Shown here: piece after piece, positions 18,718 to 42,619 of the stretch
Layout: each line of letters begins with the position of its first letter
How positions within the stretch are numbered: the stretch's first letter is position 1
Source: a virus
Taxonomy: Duplodnaviria; Caudoviricetes
DNA length: 61,555 bases
Virus record (IMG/VR): IMGVR_UViG_3300032246_000804
Location: 1 to 61,555 of that record
Direction: 5' to 3' (one strand)
Made by a program: the position numbers and the translations under genes
Notes under the pieces: model-generated
The model's database searches: none
Seen by the model: the letters and a program-made list of their open reading frames with translations, nothing else
What the model was told of the DNA's origin: nothing

Positions 18718-19920
18718 ATGACAACCAGATTTAAACTGTCAGAAGCCGCTACTGCTATTCTAGAAGGTGCTAAAGAAACTTTCGATTCAAATATTGCAGC
18801 AAAACGTGGCGCACAAGGACAAGACGCTCATAAAAACGGCGCAGTTGGTACTAATAGACTTTCAGCATCTACAGCATATGGCTCACATGATGCAGGTATT
18901 GTTGGACATTCACCAGAAGAAATGAATGATGATTTACCAGATTACTTAAAAGGTACACCATCAGCTACACCTCCAGGTGCAACACCTCCAGTTGGTGCTC
19001 AAAAAGATGGTGTTGGTGCTGCTAAACCAAAAAATCAACCGCAAGAAACAATGGGTCGTAAAGATGTTATGGCACCAGCACAATCTACTGCTGACCAATA
19101 CGATTCAATCCGTGACCGTGTTGCATCACCAAAAGCAAAACAAACTATGCAAGCAAATCCAGGCGCAACATTCCAATCTTATTCAGAAGATTTGGATATG
19201 TCTGATGACGTTAATGCATTGCTAGAAGGCGAAAATCTTTCAGAAGAATTCAAACAAAAAGCAACCACAATCTTTGAAGCAGCAGTTATGTCTCGCATTG
19301 AAGTTATTGCTGAACAAGTTGAACAACAACTAGTTGAACAATTCGAATCTGCTGTTGAAGAAATCAAAGAAGACCTAGCAGGTAAAGTTGATGAATATCT
19401 AAACTATATGGTTAATGAGTGGATGGAACAAAACGAATTGGCTGTTGATACAGGTCTACGTGCAGAAATTGCAGAAGACTTCATTGGTGGTCTAAAGAAT
19501 CTATTCATCGAACACTATATTGATATTCCAGAAGATAAAGTTGATGTTGTTTCAGAAATGGCACAAAAAGTTTCAGAACTTGAAGATGCTCTTAATGAAC
19601 AAATCACAAAAGGTATCGAGTTAACTAAACAGTTAAACGAACAAAAGAAAGTCGAAGCCGTTTATGAAGCGTGCGATGGCTTAACACAAACCCAAGTAGA
19701 AAAATTAAAATCACTCGCAGAGGGTGTGGAATTTACTACGGAAGATGAATTTGCAATTAAATTGGAAACTTTGAAATCTTCATATTTCAAAGAGTCAGTT
19801 GTTGTTGCTGAAGATTCAGCTTTAGATGAAGTGTTGATTGAAGAAGAAAAGAAGACACCGCGCTCTTCTGATCCAATGATTGACCAATATGTCCAAGGCA
19901 TTTCAAAATCACTAAAGTAA
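18718..19920 (+). CDS. gp22: Prohead core scaffold gp22
   Basis: LSEEFKQKATTIFEAAV, VDEYLNYMVNEWM, FIGGLKNLFIEH; acidic coiled coil. Confidence 0.93.
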   Translation: MTTRFKLSEAATAILEGAKETFDSNIAAKRGAQGQDAHKNGAVGTNRLSASTAYGSHDAGIVGHSPEEMNDDLPDYLKGTPSATPPGATPPVGAQKDGVGAAKPKNQPQETMGRKDVMAPAQSTADQYDSIRDRVASPKAKQTMQANPGATFQSYSEDLDMSDDVNALLEGENLSEEFKQKATTIFEAAVMSRIEVIAEQVEQQLVEQFESAVEEIKEDLAGKVDEYLNYMVNEWMEQNELAVDTGLRAEIAEDFIGGLKNLFIEHYIDIPEDKVDVVSEMAQKVSELEDALNEQITKGIELTKQLNEQKKVEAVYEACDGLTQTQVEKLKSLAEGVEFTTEDEFAIKLETLKSSYFKESVVVAEDSALDEVLIEEEKKTPRSSDPMIDQYVQGISKSLK

Positions 19921-35944: not shown

Positions 35945-36115
35945 ATGAAATCAATTTTATCTTATTTCCAAAAAATATTTGGAGATTTCAATAAGCCACA
36001 AACTTATGGATCCGCGTTAGAAGAATATATTATGAGACATTCACCACAAACTTCATGTGATGTGGATCGTTTGACTCGTCAATTTGAAATTCGACATTCC
36101 GGAAGAGGCTGGTAA
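35945..36115 (+). CDS. Small hypothetical protein (56 aa; not in the ORF track)
   Basis: AAGGAG SD; MKSILSYFQKIF...ALEEYIMRHSPQTSCDVDRLTRQFE...RGW. Confidence 0.65.
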   Translation: MKSILSYFQKIFGDFNKPQTYGSALEEYIMRHSPQTSCDVDRLTRQFEIRHSGRGW

Positions 36116-36130
36116 CTTGACGGGAGGGGC

Positions 36131-36159
36131 TTGACAAAGCTCCTCCTTTGTGTTATAGT
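36131..36159 (+). promoter_or_regulatory. Sigma70-like promoter embedded in a terminator-like hairpin
   Basis: TTGACA-N17-TATAGT; hairpin GGAGGGGCTT-GACA-AAGCTCCTCC-TTT. Confidence 0.75.
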
Positions 36160-36168
36160 GTGTACATC

Positions 36169-36372
36169 ATGAAAAAACTTGAACAAAAACCAATCAAACT
36201 ACGTAACAAATTGAACCCGTTAGAGTTCTACTGGACCTTTTCGTCTTGGGGTATGGAACAAATTGACGGTGTTGATTTCTTACCTGTAACTAAATTCGAC
36301 CCGTCGGATAATAAAACCCATCAATTATATCGGATTCGTAAAGACTCCTTGGAGAAAGTGAAAAATGGCTGA
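36169..36372 (+). CDS. Hypothetical protein
   Basis: ATG just downstream of the promoter; overlaps the next gene. Confidence 0.6.
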   Translation: MKKLEQKPIKLRNKLNPLEFYWTFSSWGMEQIDGVDFLPVTKFDPSDNKTHQLYRIRKDSLEKVKNG

Positions 36373-36655
36373 TAAAAAATTATACATTGTTGAAACTATT
36401 TCTATGTTTCGTATGCGTTATGTTGTAGAAGCTTTAGAAGAAGAACATGCACAAGATGAAGTTGTTTGCGGAGTTGGAAATACTGATTTTCAGGAATTTT
36501 CACAACATCATGTTGATGAAGTGATTACAAGTAGCCGTGAAATTTCAAAAGAAGAATATATAAAAATGTTTGATAAAGACAATGATTATATGCAATCATG
36601 GTCAGAAGAACAAAAAATGTCTCTTATCAATAAAATTGATTACGACAAGGGATAA
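36365..36655 (+). CDS. Hypothetical acidic protein
   Basis: YIVETISMFRMRYVVEA...EFSQHHVDE. Confidence 0.65.
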   Translation: MADKKLYIVETISMFRMRYVVEALEEEHAQDEVVCGVGNTDFQEFSQHHVDEVITSSREISKEEYIKMFDKDNDYMQSWSEEQKMSLINKIDYDKG

Positions 36656-36664
36656 ATAATTCTC

Positions 36665-36739
36665 CTGGCGTTCGTTCAACGGATAGGACATGATTCTTCT
36701 AAAGTCATTATAGAGGTTCGATTCCTCTACGCCGGACCA
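36665..36739 (+). tRNA. tRNA-Arg(TCT)
   Basis: Cloverleaf; anticodon loop CTTCTAA; GTTCGATT; encoded CCA. Confidence 0.92.
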
Positions 36740-36744
36740 GATAA

Positions 36745-36819
36745 GCGACTGTAGCATAGCGGTAGTGCCGGGAACTCATAATTCCTACGGGGGAGGTTCG
36801 AATCCTCTCGGTCGCACCA
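36745..36819 (+). tRNA. tRNA(CAT), probably Ile2 (lysidine type), otherwise Met
   Basis: Cloverleaf; anticodon loop CTCATAA; paired 1:72; CCA. Confidence 0.85.
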
Positions 36820-36833
36820 TTAATATTAAAAAT

Positions 36834-37247
36834 ATGAGACAAAAATTTATTGATGCGTACATGGATGTTGCAAAAAGATTTGCCGCATTATCGTCCGCAA
36901 AGCGCCTACAAGTAGGTGCTATTATTGTGAAAGATGATAGAATCATTTCTATTGGTTATAATGGAATGCCTGCTGGATGGACAAATGAATGTGAAGATGA
37001 AGAAGGTGTGACTAAGCTTGAAGTGATTCATGCAGAAGCAAATGCTATTGCAAAATTGGCTAAGTCTTCCGAGTCTGGTGATGGTGCCACGATGTTCTTA
37101 ACGCACGCTCCTTGCATTCATTGTGCTAAACAGATATACACAGCAGGCATCAAACAAGTTTACTTTGGAATACCTTATCGTGATGAATCTGGAATTGCTT
37201 TTTTATTAAAATGTGGAGTAAATGTTTGGTCAGACCATAAGACTTAA
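36834..37247 (+). CDS. cd: dCMP deaminase
   Basis: QVGAIIV, IGYNG, HAEANAI, PCIHC; ATG at 36834 lies after the tRNA. Confidence 0.93.
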   Translation: MRQKFIDAYMDVAKRFAALSSAKRLQVGAIIVKDDRIISIGYNGMPAGWTNECEDEEGVTKLEVIHAEANAIAKLAKSSESGDGATMFLTHAPCIHCAKQIYTAGIKQVYFGIPYRDESGIAFLLKCGVNVWSDHKT

Positions 37248-37272
37248 ATAAATACAAATAAAAGGGCCCGTT

Positions 37273-37779
37273 ATGTTTTTAAAAATTATTGGTTGTCCTG
37301 ATCCAGAATTTAAGCCGTTTTTGACTCGGTCTGCACACTATTTTGCTGAAAAATTATTCAGTAAACAATTATCACCACACATATTTGTCGTTGTTAAGTT
37401 TGATAAAAAGATGATAGACCATGGTAGTTGTGAAGTTACTGGCGATAATATAAAAAATAAACCTAGAGAGTTTTTAATTCACATAAAAGAAGGCCTTGGT
37501 GCTCCTTCAACATTTAGAACCATGGCTCATGAATTGGTTCATGTGAAACAATTTGCTTATGGTCATACTAATGATACTTTGACTGTCTGGCATAAGAAAG
37601 AAATAGATTCAGAAAATTTAGATTATTGGTTTCATCCTTGGGAAATTGAAGCTTATGGGTTAGAAACCTGTTTGGTTTCAAAGTTTGCAATTAAAGAAAA
37701 GTTGTGGGAAGTTTTTGAAGAATTTAAAAATCCAGATGATCCTGAAAAATATCAAGAAATAAAATGGAAAATTTCATAA
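37273..37779 (+). CDS. Zincin-like metallopeptidase
   Basis: AHELVHVKQ (HExxH), PWEIEAY. Confidence 0.75.
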   Translation: MFLKIIGCPDPEFKPFLTRSAHYFAEKLFSKQLSPHIFVVVKFDKKMIDHGSCEVTGDNIKNKPREFLIHIKEGLGAPSTFRTMAHELVHVKQFAYGHTNDTLTVWHKKEIDSENLDYWFHPWEIEAYGLETCLVSKFAIKEKLWEVFEEFKNPDDPEKYQEIKWKIS

Positions 37780-37782
37780 TCC

Positions 37783-37790
37783 ACTAAATA
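37783..37790 (+). promoter_or_regulatory. Late promoter-like motif (ACTAAATA) upstream of the leader ORF
   Basis: Same CTAAATA variant occurs at 21366 and 44522. Confidence 0.45.
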
Positions 37791-37832
37791 AGTTGTATAT
37801 ATAATTTTATAGATTAAATTTTCGGAGTTATA

Positions 37833-37940
37833 GTGTCCCAGTTCCTCAAATCCTTATCGTCAACATGTGAGTATCGCACACCCTTTATTGGTAGCGATAA
37901 TCAACCATGGGCGCATGTAGGAGGTTGTGGAGTACGGTAA
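37833..37940 (+). CDS. Putative attenuator leader peptide (35 aa) MSQFLKSLSSTCEYRTPFIGSDNQPWAHVGGCGVR
   Basis: GGAG SD at 37824-37827, GTG start, TAA at 37938; its 3' end is complementary to the 5' arm of the downstream terminator. Confidence 0.65.
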   Translation: MSQFLKSLSSTCEYRTPFIGSDNQPWAHVGGCGVR

Positions 37941-37968
37941 CAGACTAGAAAACTAAACCAGATTCCAC

Positions 37969-38000
37969 AAACCTCACAACGAAAGTTCTGAGGTTTTTTT
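37969..38000 (+). terminator. Intrinsic terminator with an overlapping antiterminator option
   Basis: AAACCTCACAAC-GAAA-GTTCTGAGG-TTTTTTT. Confidence 0.85.
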
Positions 38001-38023
38001 GTTGTTCCTATACAACAAATGTA

Positions 38024-38052
38024 TTGACAGAGGCATCGACTTCTGTTATACT
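38024..38052 (+). promoter_or_regulatory. Sigma70-like promoter, tRNA unit 1
   Basis: TTGACA-N17-TATACT with TG extension. Confidence 0.85.
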
Positions 38053-38060
38053 CGGTTTTC

Positions 38061-38106
38061 GGTTGAGAAATCAACCAAATGTTCTTTAACAAGTTAAGTG
38101 TAATTT
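38061..38106 (+). promoter_or_regulatory. boxB-like hairpin plus boxA antitermination element, copy 1
   Basis: GGTTGA-GAAA-TCAACC, then TGTTCTTTAACAA (E. coli rrn boxA is TGCTCTTTAACA). Confidence 0.75.
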
Positions 38107-38180
38107 ACGGGTGTTGTGTAATGGTAGCACATCAGACTTTGACTCTGAGAGCAGAGGTTCGATACCTTTCACCCGTTCCA
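38107..38180 (+). tRNA. tRNA-Gln(TTG)
   Basis: Cloverleaf; loop CTTTGAC; CCA. Confidence 0.9.
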
Positions 38181-38258
38181 TATAAAAACACATTGTCCTA
38201 GGCTGTGACCTAGTCCATCAGAAGTCCTTAGAGACAGAAACAATGTGTTTCTATATGG
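38178..38258 (+). ncRNA. Long-stem-closed structured element 1
   Basis: CCATATAAAAACACATTGT ... ACAATGTGTTTCTATATGG terminal inverted repeat with internal hairpins. Confidence 0.5.
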
Positions 38259-38265
38259 TATTTTT

Positions 38266-38353
38266 GGAAGAGTGGGTGAGTGGTTTAAACCAGCAGTCTT
38301 GAAAACTGCCGACTGTAAAAGGTCCCTGAGTTCGAATCTCAGTTCTTCCACCA
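38266..38353 (+). tRNA. tRNA-Ser(TGA)
   Basis: Long variable arm; loop CTTGAAA; CCA. Confidence 0.93.
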
Positions 38354-38359
38354 AACATT

Positions 38360-38446
38360 GGAGAGTGGGCTGGATGGTAAGGCACCGGATTGCTAATCCG
38401 ACGCTGCGAAAGTGGCGAGTGGGTTCGACTCCCACACTCTCCGCCA
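38360..38446 (+). tRNA. tRNA-Ser(GCT)
   Basis: Long variable arm; loop TTGCTAA; G73; CCA. Confidence 0.93.
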
Positions 38447-38451
38447 AATAT

Positions 38452-38527
38452 GTACGTGTGACCCGAACGGTGAGGGAGGTGATTGCAAACCACCAGTATG
38501 CAGGTTCGAGCCCTGTCACGTACTCCA
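38452..38527 (+). tRNA. tRNA-Cys(GCA)
   Basis: Loop TTGCAAA; U73; CCA. Confidence 0.9.
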
Positions 38528-38581
38528 TTCTCTATTTGCGAATGGCGAATGTTGTTTTTTGCAACACTATGAAAATAGTTG

Positions 38582-38609
38582 TTGACAAATTGTATGGTTG
38601 TGATATACT
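38582..38609 (+). promoter_or_regulatory. Sigma70-like promoter, tRNA unit 2
   Basis: TTGACA-N16-TATACT with TG extension. Confidence 0.8.
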
Positions 38610-38619
38610 CCATGCATAC

Positions 38620-38661
38620 GTTGAGAAATCAACATGTTCTTTAACAAGTTAAGTGTAATTT
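38620..38661 (+). promoter_or_regulatory. boxB-like hairpin plus boxA antitermination element, copy 2
   Basis: GTTGA-GAAA-TCAAC, then TGTTCTTTAACAAGTTAAGTGTAATTT identical to copy 1. Confidence 0.75.
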
Positions 38662-38664
38662 TGT

Positions 38665-38739
38665 GCTCCTGTCGTCTACTGGCTAGGACGCTGCCCTTTC
38701 AAGGCGGAAAAGACGGATCGAAACCGTTCAGGAGTACCA
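38665..38739 (+). tRNA. tRNA-Glu(TTC)
   Basis: Loop CTTTCAA; CCA. Confidence 0.92.
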
Positions 38740-38849
38740 TATTAAAGCATACTACAGGTTGGGTTAGATTCGCGGTCTAACTATTTGGGTGTCATAGACT
38801 AGGTAATTACTAGTACCGGCACTAAGATACGCAGTGTGTTTTAATATGG
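38737..38849 (+). ncRNA. Long-stem-closed structured element 2
   Basis: CCATATTAAAGCATACT ... AGTGTGTTTTAATATGG stem with G-U pairs; inner hairpins GTTAGA/TCTAAC and ACTAG/CTAGT. Confidence 0.5.
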
Positions 38850-38855
38850 TAATAT

Positions 38856-38929
38856 GGGGGTATAACTTAGTGGTAAAGTAGTAGGCTTTTAACCTATTAA
38901 CCAGAGTTCAATTCTCTGTGCCCCTACCA
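38856..38929 (+). tRNA. tRNA-Lys(TTT)
   Basis: Loop CTTTTAA; CCA. Confidence 0.92.
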
Positions 38930-38938
38930 AAGATTTTT

Positions 38939-39015
38939 GCCTTGGTGACGGAATTGGTATACGTACTGGTCTTAGAAACCAGGTTTTGCGAGTTCGAGTC
39001 TCGCCTAAGGCACCA
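38939..39015 (+). tRNA. tRNA-Leu(TAG) with short variable loop
   Basis: Loop CTTAGAA; A73; 5-nt variable region; CCA. Confidence 0.88.
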
Positions 39016-39018
39016 AAT

Positions 39019-39207
39019 TCTCGTTACTACTTTCGTTAAAGTAGCGTTTGATTAGCGAGAGAGATCCGGTGGCAGAAAACCGTTAGCGAGTGTAACCCAC
39101 TCAGACTCTGATAGGCAGTTATCTTTCTGCACACAGGTACCAGATAAAAAAGATGGACAGAGTAACCGCTCAATTAAGGGCTGGCGTGGAAAACCAGTAG
39201 CTTATCC
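39019..39207 (+). ncRNA. About 190-nt multi-hairpin RNA with a possible pseudoknot, family unidentified
   Basis: TCTCGTTA/TAGCGAGA, CTACTTT/AAAGTAG, CGGT/ACCG, GAGTG/CACTC, TTATCT/AGATAA, CTGG/CCAG; loop GCAGAAA complementary to loop TTTCTGC. Confidence 0.6.
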
Positions 39208-39213
39208 TAATTT

Positions 39214-39289
39214 GGTCTTAAAGTGTTCATGGACGCACGACGGCTTGTCACGCCGTAAGAGTGGGGATCGTTACCCCCTAAGACCGCCA
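39214..39289 (+). tRNA. tRNA-Asp(GTC)
   Basis: Loop TTGTCAC; G73; CCA; atypical T-loop ATCGTTA. Confidence 0.9.
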
Positions 39290-39295
39290 ATTTAT

Positions 39296-39330
39296 GGAGA
39301 AGCGGATGCTACGGCATCTGTTATCCACCA
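39296..39330 (+). ncRNA. CCA-ended minihelix-like RNA
   Basis: GGAGAAGCGGATGC-TACG-GCATCTGTTATCC-ACCA, followed by the AGTTTT spacer typical of this array. Confidence 0.5.
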
Positions 39331-39336
39331 AGTTTT

Positions 39337-39411
39337 GCTGATGTAGCTCAGAGGAAGAGCATTCGCTTGATAAGCGAAAGGCCGACATTTCGAAATTGTC
39401 CATCAGTACCA
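39337..39411 (+). tRNA. tRNA-Ile(GAT)
   Basis: Loop TTGATAA; CCA. Confidence 0.9.
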
Positions 39412-39418
39412 AGTTTTA

Positions 39419-39502
39419 GGAGTGGATGCTCTAATGGTAGGGCAGCAGGCTGTAACCCTGTGGCCGCAAGGCAAGTAGGTTCGATCCCTACCCACTCCAC
39501 CA
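39419..39502 (+). tRNA. tRNA-Tyr(GTA)
   Basis: Loop CTGTAAC; variable arm GCC-GCAA-GGC; CCA. Confidence 0.92.
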
Positions 39503-39509
39503 AGTTTTA

Positions 39510-39583
39510 GCCCTATTAGTATAATGGTATTACACCTGTTTTGTAATCAGGTTACGGCAGTTCGATTCTGTCATGGGGCACCA
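39510..39583 (+). tRNA. tRNA-Thr(TGT)
   Basis: Loop TTTGTAA; CCA. Confidence 0.9.
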
Positions 39584-39592
39584 AGTTTTTAT

Positions 39593-39659
39593 GCGGTAAG
39601 GTATTAACTGTCTGAGGGTCCACCTTAGAAGTGTTGTGAAAATCAATATTACCGCTCCA
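39593..39659 (+). ncRNA. D-armless tRNA-Gly(TCC)-like RNA
   Basis: Acceptor GCGGTAA/TTACCGC-T-CCA; arm CTGAG-GGTCCAC-CTTAG; T-like arm with loop TGAAAAT; no D-arm. Confidence 0.55.
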
Positions 39660-39666
39660 GTTTTAT

Positions 39667-39744
39667 CCGTGTGTAGCGCAGTCTGGTTAGCGCATCTGCT
39701 TTGGGAGCAGAGGGTCGGGAGTTCGAATCTCTCCACACGGACCA
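39667..39744 (+). tRNA. tRNA-Pro(TGG)
   Basis: Loop TTTGGGA; CCA. Confidence 0.95.
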
Positions 39745-39759
39745 AGTTTTTTTGAATAT

Positions 39760-39835
39760 TCCGGTGAAGCAAACTAGGTGTGGGCAGAGGACTGTTAATC
39801 CTTGAAGCCAGGTTCGAATCCTGGGACCGGAGCCA
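39760..39835 (+). tRNA. tRNA-Asn(GTT)
   Basis: Loop CTGTTAA; G73; CCA; atypical D-arm. Confidence 0.85.
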
Positions 39836-39840
39836 ATTAT

Positions 39841-39915
39841 GGGCTGTTAGTGATAGTGGTAGCACAGGGGCTTTGCAAGCCTTAGGCGGGAGTTCGATTC
39901 TCCCACGGTCCACCA
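39841..39915 (+). tRNA. tRNA-Ala(TGC)
   Basis: Loop TTTGCAA; G3:U70; CCA. Confidence 0.93.
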
Positions 39916-39922
39916 TTTTTTA

Positions 39923-39997
39923 GGTGATATGACGTAGATGGATGCGTAGCGGTTTCATAAGCCGATGAGGAAGGCTCGGTACCTTCTATCACCACCA
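39923..39997 (+). tRNA. tRNA-Met(CAT), probably elongator
   Basis: Loop TTCATAA; paired 1:72; CCA. Confidence 0.82.
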
Positions 39998-39999
39998 GT

Positions 40000-40159
40000 T
40001 TTGTAGTAGGAGCAGTGCCTAGTGGGAAGGGCAATCAGAGGCCTTTAAAAACAAAGTAGTAAAAGTCTTTATATCAAAAAGATGAGTATCGAAAAGCCTT
40101 TATGATACACGGAGTAGCGGGAGGGGGTGATGCCCTGATGTGTCTACACCGGCTACAAA
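40000..40159 (+). ncRNA. About 160-nt stem-closed RNA, family unidentified
   Basis: TTTGTAGT/GCTACAAA ends; AGGGCAATCA/TGATGCCCT inner helix; GTATC/GATAC hairpin. Confidence 0.45.
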
Positions 40160-40166
40160 TTTATTT

Positions 40167-40244
40167 GCGCCTTTAGTTCAACTGGATAGAACACCGGGCT
40201 ACGAACCCGTGAGGTTGGGAGTTCAAATCTCTCAGGGCGCACCA
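40167..40244 (+). tRNA. tRNA-Arg(ACG)
   Basis: Loop CTACGAA; CCA. Confidence 0.92.
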
Positions 40245-40260
40245 TTTTTAGGAGTTAAAT

Positions 40261-40434
40261 ATGAATGAAGCAGGTAAAGGATCTTCACCTAGACCAAAAA
40301 ATGTTTCTGATGAAGAATATGCAAATCGTTGGGATGCAATCTTTCAAAGAGACAAACGTGTAGAAGAAGACCAACAAAATGAAGATGAAGAATTTGATCG
40401 TATTAGTTTAAATTCAAAAAAATTAAGTCAGTAA
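40261..40434 (+). CDS. Small hypothetical protein (57 aa; not in the ORF track)
   Basis: AGGAG SD; MNEAGKGSSPRPKNVSDEEYANRWDAIF... Confidence 0.7.
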   Translation: MNEAGKGSSPRPKNVSDEEYANRWDAIFQRDKRVEEDQQNEDEEFDRISLNSKKLSQ

Positions 40435-40435
40435 T

Positions 40436-40509
40436 GTCTCTCTGGTGTAATGGCAGCACTACGGTCTCCAAAATCGTAAGTGAGGGTTCGAGTCCTTCGG
40501 GGGATGCCA
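40436..40509 (+). tRNA. tRNA-Trp(CCA)
   Basis: Loop CTCCAAA; G73; CCA; G-U-rich acceptor stem. Confidence 0.88.
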
Positions 40510-40525
40510 ATAAAAGAAAGTTAAT

Positions 40526-41017
40526 ATGAAAAAATTTAATTTGGATGAAGTAAAATCATTTATTACGAAACAAGGACCTGATACTAAAGTTTATCTTGGT
40601 GCAGACTCCGAACGTATGCGTATTGATGGTGTATGGTATGCAGATTACGCTTTAGCAGTTGTTGTTCATATTGATGGCCGTCATGGTTGTAAGATTTTTG
40701 GTTTTGTTGACCGTGAATTGGATTATGACCACAAGAAAAGCAAACCTGCAATGCGTCTGATGACAGAAGTTTATAAAGTTTCTGCTTTGTTCCAAGAAAT
40801 GCAAGATGTATTAGAAGACCGTCATGTTGAAGTTCATTTGGACCTAAACAAATCTGACGAACACGGTTCTTCTTGTGTCGTTCAACAAGCAATTGGTTAT
40901 ATCAAAGGTACATGTAACATGACACCAATGGTTAAACCAGATGCTCCTGCTGCTTCTTTCTGTGCAGACCGTTTAAAACGGATTCTAGCAGAACAAGAAT
41001 TAGCAGAAGCTCAGTAA
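40526..41017 (+). CDS. RNase H-like YkuK (DUF458) family protein
   Basis: VYLGADS, AVVVH, RLMTEV, EVHLDLN, KPDAPAASFCADR. Confidence 0.8.
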   Translation: MKKFNLDEVKSFITKQGPDTKVYLGADSERMRIDGVWYADYALAVVVHIDGRHGCKIFGFVDRELDYDHKKSKPAMRLMTEVYKVSALFQEMQDVLEDRHVEVHLDLNKSDEHGSSCVVQQAIGYIKGTCNMTPMVKPDAPAASFCADRLKRILAEQELAEAQ

Positions 41018-41023
41018 GTATAA

Positions 41024-41097
41024 GCGGGTATGATGTAAAGGTAGCCTGTGACCTTGCCAAGGTTAGTGTGAGAGTTCGATTCTCTCTACCCGCTCCA
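41024..41097 (+). tRNA. tRNA-Gly(GCC)
   Basis: Loop TTGCCAA; U73; CCA. Confidence 0.9.
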
Positions 41098-41105
41098 GTT
41101 TTTAT

Positions 41106-41180
41106 GTGGTTGTTAGTTTAGTGGCAAAACCGCGGGTTGTGATTCCGCTATCACGGGTTCGATTCCCGTACATCCACCCA
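41106..41180 (+). tRNA. tRNA-His(GTG)
   Basis: Loop TTGTGAT; G-1:C73; CCA. Confidence 0.9.
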
Positions 41181-41182
41181 AT

Positions 41183-41257
41183 GCCTTGTTAGCTCAGCGG
41201 TAGAGCGCCCTCCTTACAAGTGGGATGTCGGCGGTTCGATCCCGTCACAAGGTACCA
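41183..41257 (+). tRNA. tRNA-Val(TAC)
   Basis: Loop CTTACAA; CCA. Confidence 0.93.
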
Positions 41258-41306
41258 ATAATCGCCTTTGTTGACGGCGTACAATGAGATAAATTGTCAA
41301 CAACTT

Positions 41307-41380
41307 GCTCTTATAGTATAATGGCATTACACGTCCTTGGTAAGGATGAAACACAAGTTCAATTCTTGTTAAGAGCACCA
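41307..41380 (+). tRNA. tRNA-Thr(GGT)
   Basis: Loop TTGGTAA; CCA. Confidence 0.9.
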
Positions 41381-41385
41381 ATTTA

Positions 41386-41461
41386 GCAACTTTAGCTGAT
41401 GTGGTCATAGCGGCGGTCTGAAGAACCGTTGAAAGAGGTTCGATTCCTCTAGGTTGCACCA
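41386..41461 (+). tRNA. tRNA-Phe(GAA)
   Basis: Loop CTGAAGA; CCA. Confidence 0.9.
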
Positions 41462-41462
41462 A

Positions 41463-41537
41463 GTCTTTGTAGTTCAACGGATAGAACGCATTCCTCCTAA
41501 GAATGAGATACAGGCTCGATTCCTGTCGGAGACACCA
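41463..41537 (+). tRNA. tRNA-Arg(CCT)
   Basis: Loop CTCCTAA; CCA. Confidence 0.9.
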
Positions 41538-41559
41538 ATGGTATTAATATAAAATATAC

Positions 41560-41588
41560 TTGACAAATTACACTTAACTTGATATAAT
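41560..41588 (+). promoter_or_regulatory. Consensus sigma70 promoter for the last three tRNAs
   Basis: TTGACA-N17-TATAAT with TG extension. Confidence 0.88.
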
Positions 41589-41597
41589 GTACGAAAT

Positions 41598-41684
41598 GCG
41601 ACTGTGGCGTAATTGGTAGCCGCAACAGACTTAAAATCTGTCGCTCGAGAGGGCGTACCGGTTCGAGTCCGGTCAGTCGCACCA
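41598..41684 (+). tRNA. tRNA-Leu(TAA)
   Basis: Loop CTTAAAA; long variable arm; CCA. Confidence 0.95.
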
Positions 41685-41702
41685 AAGTCACATATATAAT
41701 AT

Positions 41703-41779
41703 AGCAGAGTATGGAAGAGGTCTATCCGCTTGGTCTCATAAGCCAAGAATCGCAGGTTCAAATCCTGCCTCTGCAACCA
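41703..41779 (+). tRNA. tRNA-Met(CAT), initiator-like
   Basis: A1:A72 mismatch; loop CTCATAA; TTCAAAT T-loop; CCA. Confidence 0.85.
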
Positions 41780-41783
41780 ACAT

Positions 41784-41857
41784 GCGGGATTAGTTTAATG
41801 GTAAAATTAGAGATTTCCAATCTCCAGTCATCAGTTCGATTCTGATATCCCGCTCCA
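41784..41857 (+). tRNA. tRNA-Gly(TCC)
   Basis: Loop TTTCCAA; U73; CCA. Confidence 0.92.
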
Positions 41858-41885
41858 TTAAAGTGTTTAACCATATAAATAATGG

Positions 41886-42005
41886 ATGCACTTTAACATA
41901 ATCATCACGTTTAACGATTTATTATTCCTACTTGGGTGTGTACCCTTAGTAATGATATTTTGGGTATTGTTCAAAGATTGGTCAAACGATAGAAACCGAC
42001 ATTAA
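41886..42005 (+). CDS. Possible small membrane peptide (39 aa) MHFNIIITFNDLLFLLGCVPLVMIFWVLFKDWSNDRNRH
   Basis: TATAAATA at 41874-41881 just upstream; one hydrophobic helix; stop overlaps the stop of the convergent gene; no SD. Confidence 0.4.
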   Translation: MHFNIIITFNDLLFLLGCVPLVMIFWVLFKDWSNDRNRH

Positions 42006-42619
42006 GCTCCATTTTTTGCAGCCGCATCTAATTGTTTCTTTTGTTCTTGTTCTCTAGCCCATTGTTGTTCTCTAATGATTTTTGCACGCTTTATCTGTGC
42101 AGCTTCAAACGCTTTTTGTTCTTCAGCCATGCTGTAAAACTGGACGCCTAACATAACAAATGCAGAAATAACAAGTCCAAATGCTATAGTGTACAAGCTT
42201 ATCATCATATACTTAGCCATCTTTTCTTTATGTGCTTGTTTGGCTTTTGCAACCGCTTCTTCACCTTCACGTTTTTCTTTCATTAATCTGGTACGTTCTT
42301 TAATCATGTCTTCCCAGATTTGTGGCTTACCTAATTGCCAATAAATCATATCTTTCAATGCTCTTTCATCTTCACGTAATTTATTGCTATGCATAGCAAA
42401 CTCAAGTGCTTGGCGACTAAGTTGAGCATCTGTTTTTCCAATGGAATTATGTTTAGCTTTAATGCTAGCTACGTGGACCGCATCAGCTGATTCAAAGAAG
42501 TGACCAACTTGGCCAATAATACTATTAATGTCTTTGCCCATGGCTATGGCTTGTTTAATGCCACTAATTGCTGATTGTGCCGCAGAGAAAGCAAGACTTA
42601 TGCTAATTGGATCAATCAT
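42002..42619 (-). CDS. Hypothetical membrane-anchored coiled-coil protein
   Basis: MIDPISISLAF N-terminus; TM segment YMMISLYTIAFGLVISAFVMLGVQFY. Confidence 0.75.
   Translation of the reverse strand: MIDPISISLAFSAAQSAISGIKQAIAMGKDINSIIGQVGHFFESADAVHVASIKAKHNSIGKTDAQLSRQALEFAMHSNKLREDERALKDMIYWQLGKPQIWEDMIKERTRLMKEKREGEEAVAKAKQAHKEKMAKYMMISLYTIAFGLVISAFVMLGVQFYSMAEEQKAFEAAQIKRAKIIREQQWAREQEQKKQLDAAAKNGA

Follow-up and report, generated by a model that had tools for sequence, protein, structure and literature searches.

Phage tRNA genes are seen as counter-measures to host tRNA-cleaving defences and to the loss of tRNAs during infection; how they are regulated is, to our knowledge, largely unknown. 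The question is raised by a stretch of 61,555 nucleotides (nt) of viral DNA (IMG/VR record IMGVR_UViG_3300032246_000804; Duplodnaviria, Caudoviricetes), hereafter called the window, in which an array of 26 tRNA genes is headed by a short open reading frame (ORF) and an intrinsic terminator (positions 37783-38000). A first-pass annotation, made by a model from the letters of the window alone, had read this element as an attenuator whose leader ORF senses the whole tRNA pool. What, then, is the element, and what might it do for the array? The element is real and conserved, and its comparison among relatives suggests that it is probably a ribosome-gated intrinsic terminator, that is, a leader-peptide attenuator which heads the array and gauges the speed of translation. 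It is the comparative evidence, not the amino-acid count of a single ORF, that carries the case.

The GGAG, the GTG-initiated ORF, the complementary segments, the terminator and the 26 tRNA genes were all found where the first-pass annotation had placed them, in the following arrangement:

37784..37790, + strand: CTAAATA, a late-promoter-like motif upstream of the leader (putative role)
37792..37813, + strand: conserved AT-rich promoter-like box (GTTGTATATATAAT ... TATAGA), which aligns with CCTATATAAT / TA(C/T)AAT in relatives
37824..37827, + strand: GGAG Shine-Dalgarno (SD) sequence, 5 nt ahead of the GTG; GGAG precedes the start in all relatives of the 'SD' class
37833..37940, + strand: leader ORF of 35 codons plus TAA, with a GTG start; peptide MSQFLKSLSSTCEYRTPFIGSDNQPWAHVGGCGVR
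37869..37910, + strand: conserved core, codons 13-26 (EYRTPFIGSDNQPW), containing the hairpin TATCGC (37872-37877) / GCGATA (37894-37899)
37921..37938, + strand: antiterminator 5' strand, formed by the last ORF codons (G-run 37920-37924)
37938..37956, + strand: antiterminator apical loop with the TAA stop codon
37957..37975, + strand: antiterminator 3' strand, of which 37969-37975 are common to the terminator 5' arm
37969..38000, + strand: intrinsic terminator (hairpin 37969-37996, 7-T run 37994-38000; -11.6 kcal/mol)
38001..38016, + strand: conserved inverted repeat GTTGT..ACAAC, between the terminator T-run and the -35 box of the tRNA promoter
38024..38052, + strand: sigma70-type promoter of the tRNA array, TTGACA-17-TATACT, conserved in relatives
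38061..38092, + strand: boxB-like hairpin (38061-38076) and boxA-like TGTTCTTTAACAA (38080-38092), kept in relatives
38107..41857, + strand: array of 26 tRNA genes for all 20 amino acids, the first of which is tRNA-Gln(TTG)

Relatives of the element were collected by several routes. A search with the flanking protein returned 13 IMG/VR loci, ten of which have the element; 18 loci were obtained with a peptide alignment and 51 stretches with a degenerate DNA pattern, these being reduced to 39 unique elements, and one metagenome scan contributed 45 further loci. The set comprises 47 distinct complete leader peptides, all from uncultured phages (IMG/VR and JGI lake contigs). Contigs of relatives reach 160-171 kb, in line with the putative label 'T4-like'. 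Three loci truncated by contig ends (L074, L115 and L118) were left out, as was L014, whose 5' end is cut, from some of the alignments; L091 is absent from the extracted peptide set, yet carries the RNA element, and the start of L119 was placed at the Met homologous to that of L034 and L043. Downstream of the element, tRNA-Gln(TTG) and an array of 25-29 tRNAs are found in L001-L010 and in 27 of 29 additional loci, the other two being at a contig edge. Wherever the contig reaches, the regions ahead of the arrays bear out the linkage seen in the window, and the element consistently heads the array.

The pairing between the end of the leader ORF and the foot of the terminator was compared across the family. 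In the window, positions 37921-37938 pair with 37957-37975 through the 13 base pairs (bp) with one bulge that the first-pass annotation had described, plus a 3-bp extension. The duplex has an energy of -23.1 kcal/mol; shuffling the 5' strand 200 times never gave as low a value, and 6-7 nt of the terminator 5' arm are common to the duplex. Across the family all 31 unique pairs form such a duplex, with energies from -15.1 to -23.7 kcal/mol (mean z = -4.2 versus shuffles), and the pairing strands change together, being GGAGGUUGUGGAGU / AUUCCACAAACCUC in the window, GGGGUUUUUGAAGA / UUUUCAAAAACCUC in L044, GGGUCUUGU / ACAAGACCC in L034, CUGGGUUUUGUG / CACAAAACCCAG in L057 and GGGUUAGGUGA / UCACCAAACCC in L073. 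Strands matched to their own partners average -19.8, against -15.6 with the partners of other members, and none of 10,000 permutations was as good; the own partner was the best of all in 16 of 31. On an alignment of 43 distinct rows made with a covariance model, and so biased towards the structure that the model was given, 75.2% of cells are paired (68.3 +/- 0.8 in shuffles) and both sides have changed in 12 of 17 pairs, compared with 7.3 +/- 1.2 after shuffling; 0 of 500 shuffles attained these values, and the true pairing register outscores all slid registers. This alignment replaced RNAalifold on a MAFFT alignment of the 3' part, which returned 6 terminator pairs only, a low yield that arose because the variable strands were misaligned. 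Covarying antiterminator and terminator helices, expected in relatives if the single-window proposal held, were found, with nucleotides common to both helices.

The position of the pairing relative to the stop codon is also kept. Throughout the relatives the stop codon lies within the apical loop of the covarying hairpin, and 38 of 38 family sequences have a terminator whose T-run is 53-61 nt past the stop codon, including those with the long ORFs (L057, L073). The lower stem of the antiterminator consists of the G-run of the ORF and a C-run, and the same C-run forms the bottom of the terminator stem; in an RNA that still lacks the terminator 3' arm, 4-9 nt of the 5' arm pair with upstream sequence, and this is so in 31 of 31. 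Family terminators have upper stems and loops of about five types, shuffled among clades, and the bottom C-run/G-run pairs are kept. A simple terminator scan of the window did not have the 37969-38000 terminator among its output.

The ORF itself is preserved in relatives as a translatable frame. It is open in all 36 unique nucleotide versions, the other two frames being open in 2 and 0, a count which is partly circular because the ORFs were delimited in that same frame. Its length is 33-44 codons, mostly 34-38; alignment gaps within it are multiples of 3, and synonymous variation occurs at CCN, GGY, AGY, CAR and CAY. A start signal, the frame and the terminator are kept throughout the family. 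The start signals fall into three classes, namely GGAG with GTG or TTG, an ATG near the promoter, and an ATG with a weak SD sequence. In 11 of the 13 sequences of the second class the ATG stands exactly 6 nt past a TTGCC(A/G)-17-TATA(A/C)T promoter, so that its A would be the first base of the transcript, which suggests that this class is read from a leaderless mRNA. The open frame, the indels in threes and the kept start signals together favour a coding leader, whose translation is probable.

If so, the element would work as follows. A promoter upstream would yield a short mRNA whose ORF of 33-44 codons is translated, its last 5-7 codons forming the 5' strand of a hairpin with the stop codon in the apical loop. 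In the lower stem of this hairpin the G-run of the ORF would pair with the C-run that is the bottom of the terminator 5' arm. A ribosome that reaches the stop codon would hold the 5' strand, leaving the C-run to pair with the terminator 3' arm, and transcription would end about 55 nt past the stop. With the ribosome absent, or held at about codons 2-26, the hairpin would form first and withhold the bottom of the terminator stem; the polymerase would then continue past the array promoter, boxB and boxA and give the tRNA genes additional transcription. We infer translation of the leader, a kinetic competition between the two folds, regulation in this direction, and a benefit of extra tRNAs when decoding is slow, as it might be, for instance, after tRNA cleavage or in starvation.

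As the first-pass annotation had noted, the ORF of the window has 20 kinds of amino acid, with Met at the start only, and 29 different codons. Under the composition of the window proteome the probability of all 20 in 35 residues is about 1e-3, and 2 of the 287 window ORFs of 30-45 codons have all 20, so in a single ORF of the window this content is no more than chance; the second such ORF (minus strand, reverse-complement position 19682, 38 amino acids) was taken as chance background. The codons are indeed atypical, the mean logarithm (ln) of the relative synonymous codon usage (RSCU) being -0.17 against 0.23 +/- 0.12 in 34-codon windows of 46 long ORFs. A value as low is found in 0.27% of 2,976 gene windows, recoding the leader peptide by gene usage gives p = 1e-4, and the GC content of the leader is 49% versus 36%. 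No single codon forms a run, and nearly each amino acid occurs once or twice.

Across the family the breadth is retained in most variants. All 20 kinds are present in 34 of the 47 peptides, 19 in 11, 18 in one and 17 in one, the kinds that are missing being V, H, C, A and E. Given the core, the number expected with all 20 is 0.76 of 35 under proteome composition and 6.1 of 35 under the composition of the family's variable parts, against an observed 24 of 35, a count inflated by shared ancestry. The variable parts are enriched in residues that the core lacks (Cys 5.5% versus 0.9%, His 4.1% versus 2.1%); C, H, L and K are abundant in these parts, and D, E, N, Q and Y, all present in the core, are scarce. 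His, Cys and Glu shift position across the family rather than vanish. Exactly one His is present in 40 of 47 peptides; across the 47, His stands after the Trp in 32, in the N-terminal part in 9, in both in 1 and in neither in 5 (Fisher p = 1.3e-5, uncorrected for relatedness, with perhaps 4-5 independent events). Glu has changed place in L122-L127, as have Arg, Phe and Ile in L031.

The part of the earlier claim that failed is that the leader samples the whole tRNA pool. In a footprint test which counted a codon as usable if a ribosome stalled there stands 4 or more codons short of the antiterminator strand, only 1 of 33 variants has the full 19 non-Met amino acids at usable codons. The caveat attached to that claim, that stalls at W, A, H and V might cover the antiterminator, proved apt, for in this test these codons usually lie too near to it. 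Neither do the leaders mirror the arrays: a comparison by eye of the amino acids missing from leaders with the isotypes missing from arrays found no correspondence. The leaders of L006-L009 are without Val, yet the L007 array has a tRNA-Val, and the L036 leader contains Tyr while ARAGORN finds no tRNA-Tyr in its array.

The breadth is joined to a conserved peptide core. Among 35 variants, 13 columns are conserved at >=90%, each with a different residue (EYRTPFIGSDNQ.W), which has a chance probability of P = 0.0022. The consensus EYRTPFIGSDNQxW is kept in order and identity and ends 3-6 codons ahead of the antiterminator strand. The mid-ORF hairpin UAUCGC/GCGAUA is conserved as well, with a compensatory change to TATCAC/GTGATA in L031. 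Conservation extends to the core's G, S, T and F, residues that are present elsewhere in the peptide as well, so there is a constraint beyond codon sampling, for which the mid-ORF hairpin and the peptide itself are both candidates. A local resemblance links the core to the Kazal reactive-loop/CGSD motif: the match with the ovomucoid third domain (PDB 2gkt_I), in an alignment that includes KSLLLTCEYRTPFIGSDNQSWAH, has E = 0.014, and P0006, a Kazal-like protein of 264 amino acids, has four repeats of ...DYTPFCGSDNQ.Y.... A Kazal-type inhibitor domain was rejected, the peptides having 0-2 Cys instead of the six that form three disulfides, and three of them giving no Pfam match at E up to 1, and the resemblance is most likely chance or convergence. 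The leader peptides, 33-44 amino acids long, have no signal peptide by eye.

That the leader is a selected pan-amino-acid gauge, a near-minimal ORF in which a codon for almost every amino acid is maintained, such that a shortage of nearly any charged tRNA opens the terminator and boosts the phage tRNA set, is a tentative proposal, which we think rather doubtful as it stands. It draws support from the breadth of the 34 and 11 peptides with 20 and 19 kinds, from the 13 distinct core residues, from the Cys and His enrichment and from the relocation of residues; against it are the strict footprint failure in 32 of 33 variants, the 13 of 47 peptides that are incomplete, and the conservation of the redundant core residues G, S, T and F. 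Pan-amino-acid shaping of the leader is plausible but unproven.

The leader of the window folds better than its shuffles (z = -2.34). Its unconstrained minimum free energy (MFE) fold does not contain the antiterminator; in that fold the 5' part of the ORF pairs with the 3' part and the terminator is intact. This suggested a region 1:2 helix as a candidate, which was rejected, having across the family a mean z of -0.44, values below -2 in 5 of 35 and p = 0.24 in a swap test. When a ribosome was represented as a mask on the window leader, the probability of the terminator, P(terminator), was 0.81 without a ribosome and 0.95 with one at codons 1-3; it did not exceed 0.13 over codons 4-29, apart from 0.39 at codon 19, and was 0.95-0.96 over codons 30-36. 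Computed for the two folds themselves, as the first-pass annotation had envisaged, the energies are near-equal, with a median difference of -1.2 kcal/mol. A T-box riboswitch was also considered and rejected, an Rfam scan at E up to 1 giving no T-box match in 37783-38000.

A number of observations weigh against a ribosome-gated terminator or limit what it could sense. In 26 of 31 the balance tips slightly towards the terminator state, and exclusivity is partial, because the upper hairpin is compatible with the terminator. Sequestering of the 5' arm is modestly above that of composition-matched shuffles (5.8 versus 3.4 nt), with 6 of 31 individually significant. In 37 variants the equilibrium mask is uneven: P(terminator) drops below 0.3 at >=4 codons in 22 of them, at just 1-3 codons in 3 and nowhere in the other 12. 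Because of this unevenness the model was not used as family-wide support, and the switch, if working, would be kinetically decided. No region 1:2 (anti-antiterminator) helix is conserved across the family. Accordingly the trp/his geometry invoked by the first-pass annotation is only in part retained: the antiterminator at the end of the ORF does overlap the terminator, whereas the region 1:2 helix is not conserved, and the element is better read as a two-state device than as a full trp-type three-helix attenuator. On the side of the peptide, 13 of 47 variants are short of 1-3 amino acids, the W, A, H and V codons fall beneath a ribosome footprint that covers the antiterminator, and the core keeps both the order and the identity of its residues, more than a pure codon sampler would demand. 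Finally, a consensus sigma70 promoter with boxB and boxA follows the terminator in every relative. The first-pass annotation had itself cautioned that such a promoter could express the array independently, and the one at 38024-38052 agrees with this; since the array has its own promoter, it does not depend on read-through and only additional transcription would be gated.

Some of these points are shared by other explanations. The leader might be a stand-alone small peptide gene of 33-44 amino acids with its own promoter and terminator and with a binding or folding motif as its core; the hairpin around the stop codon would then be an mRNA 3' structure or an insulator shielding the tRNA promoter, and the amino-acid breadth a by-product of a non-repetitive motif combined with common residues. 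Conservation of the core in order and identity in >=90% of the 35 variants fits such a gene, as do its weak Kazal-loop resemblance (E = 0.014; P0006), the independent promoter past the terminator, the compatibility of the upper hairpin with the terminator, and the linkage of the element in L001-L010, which is as tight to the upstream WLM-like gene as to the array. A peptide gene does not, however, account for a G-run/C-run pairing that changes together with the terminator 5' arm, or for a stop codon that stays in the loop at a fixed distance from the T-run even when the ORF is 6-9 codons longer. Changes of place by His, Cys and Glu would be hard for a fixed fold to tolerate, the rare codons are retained, and neither Pfam nor PHROG has a family for the peptide; on balance we regard this explanation as unlikely.

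An attenuator of another kind, in which the nascent core arrests the ribosome on one specific signal (a small molecule, an antibiotic or a tunnel-binding factor) in the manner of TnaC, SpeFL, ErmCL or the MsrD/VmlR leaders, would keep the switch and drop the response to each aminoacyl-tRNA supply. Leader length and stop-codon position may resemble those of known arrest peptides, and the sequence-specific core of 13 residues ends 3-6 codons before the antiterminator strand. Leader-peptide attenuators that sense ribosome-targeting drugs have been published (PMC9226507, 10.1101/2021.11.29.470318). Yet the family profile matched no ribosome-nascent-chain entry among PDB sequences, conservation of the core nucleotides may stem largely from the UAUCGC/GCGAUA hairpin, and arrest on one signal leaves the Cys/His enrichment of the variable parts and the relocation of residues unexplained, which makes it improbable. 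A non-coding structured small RNA with its own terminator and an incidental open frame would suit a GC-rich leader that folds better than shuffles (z = -2.34), has codon use unlike that of phage genes and conserves many third codon positions of its core. It is very hard to reconcile with a frame open in 36 of 36 versions while the others are closed, with indels in threes, with three differing yet plausible start signals that are all kept, or with synonymous changes at CCN, GGY, AGY, CAR and CAY; the leader also has no Rfam family, and we give this explanation very little credence. A ribosome-gated terminator that gauges translation speed is therefore the reading we favour.

Its upstream signals differ among clades. 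CTAAATA occurs at 5 sites in the window, all on the + strand (21366, 21985, 34719, 37784, 44522), against 13.5 +/- 3.3 expected, a depletion of the kind that promoter-like words show. The clade of the window retains the copy ahead of the leader, which is not present in L010, L026 or L063. The word TATAAATA has 5 occurrences in the window, 4 of them on the + strand. In most relatives the leader is preceded by TTGCCA or TTGACA, 17 nt and then a -10 box; the clade of the window is without a good -35 box, so its box at 37792-37813 is a promoter candidate of uncertain class. Past the terminator, nearly all relatives retain the inverted repeat at 38001-38016, three having TTGC..GCAA there. Each array sigma70 promoter is followed by a GGTTGA-GAAA-TCAACC hairpin and then TGTTCTTTAACAA, a second set lying near 38620-38660; the hairpin and TGTTCTTTAACAA at 38061-38092 resemble what we take to be the boxB-boxA arrangement of rrn operons, judged by the boxA of E. 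coli.

In all, the window has 28 tRNA genes, those outside the array lying upstream of the leader with the neighbouring genes:

36665-36819: two tRNA genes, upstream of the dCMP deaminase gene
36765-37247: dCMP deaminase gene (PHROG 174)
37273-37779: gene for a 168-amino-acid protein, function unassigned (phrog_10499; a 'WLM protease domain protein' is among its best phage relatives)

The loci of more distant relatives of this flanking protein, at L011:4582-4969, L012:3135-3499 and L013:4845-5191, have neither leader nor array at this place; they carry a permuted tmRNA gene beside tRNA-Arg(TCT) and a long tRNA called Ile(TAT).

The leader family is narrow. An 838-nt region had no match in a DNA search of 50,697 deposited phage genomes, and tblastn of the peptide against the same genomes gave a best E of 0.8, within unrelated genes, so that uncultured contigs are the only known source of the family. 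When 1.84 billion representative proteins were searched with a profile, 9 hits were returned, 5 of which are family members (P0001-P0005). The remaining 4 are repeat proteins, namely P0006, which is Kazal-like, P0007 and P0009, which resemble translated repeats, and P0008; their E-values are inflated by the repeats. With only five family clusters, the family appears restricted to what is seen in lake metagenomes. Rfam cmscan of 36000-42500 at E up to 1 gave tRNA-related hits only and none in 37783-38000, and three leader peptides had no family in Pfam (E up to 1) or PHROGs. Contigs from four lake RNA-library runs carry pieces of relatives, with ends and strand not readable and DNA possibly present. 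Among these pieces are a 136-nt insert spanning 37827-37962, a contig-level observation to which DNA carry-over may contribute, and a 430-nt contig (37756-38165) which spans the terminator and is open to the same carry-over.

How does the element compare with known systems? Leader-peptide attenuators of enterobacteria include trpL, hisL, pheL and leuL and the multivalent thrL and ilvL. In the trp and his attenuators the terminator lies about 55-65 nt past the stop codon, and an alternative helix at the end of the ORF overlaps the terminator 5' arm; a ribosome at the stop codon leads to termination and one held upstream to read-through. The phage element shares with them a short leader ORF, a terminator after the stop and a helix at the ORF end that shares nucleotides of the terminator 5' arm. 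It differs in having no run of regulatory codons and no conserved region 1:2 helix. The genes that it would regulate are tRNAs rather than biosynthetic enzymes, they carry their own promoter past the terminator, and the leader, which is borne by a phage, has a peptide core conserved in sequence.

Drug-sensing leaders, such as those of B. subtilis vmlR, streptococcal msrD/mefE, erm and cat, are described in PMC9226507, PMC4335068 and 10.1101/2021.11.29.470318. They and the phage element have in common an upstream ORF with a terminator/antiterminator that is opened, in the phage putatively, by stalling, and an output that aids the recovery of translation. They rely, however, on drug-dependent arrest at peptide motifs and produce resistance proteins, whereas the phage element implies no drug and precedes a full tRNA set. 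The nearest published case is the induction of a tRNA array in Anabaena sp. PCC 7120, where a silent 26-gene tRNA operon (L-array) is induced under translational stress (PMC8421152, PMC10272220). Control is exerted at the promoter, at tandem 9-nt direct repeats which lie over the -10 box and the transcription start site and are bound by the repressor TrcR, and PMC8421152 does not mention attenuation, a leader or a terminator. Both arrays are extra, near-complete tRNA sets whose expression rises, on the phage side as a proposal, when translation is impaired; the L-array is cellular, located on a megaplasmid and controlled at its promoter, in contrast to the phage array, which lies in a phage genome behind a leader terminator. 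Full-text literature searches found no description of leader-peptide control of tRNA genes.

If the reading is true, an attenuator ahead of a complete tRNA array would for the first time place tRNA genes under this classical mechanism, and its leader would be the first to sample decoding in general rather than one amino acid. Such a leader might also be put to use as a compact synthetic sensor of translation capacity. For the phages themselves, a pan-amino-acid gauge, if true, would amount to a homeostatic feedback from decoding capacity to tRNA supply, whether the shortage came from starvation, from host defences that cleave tRNAs or from host shut-off induced by the phage.

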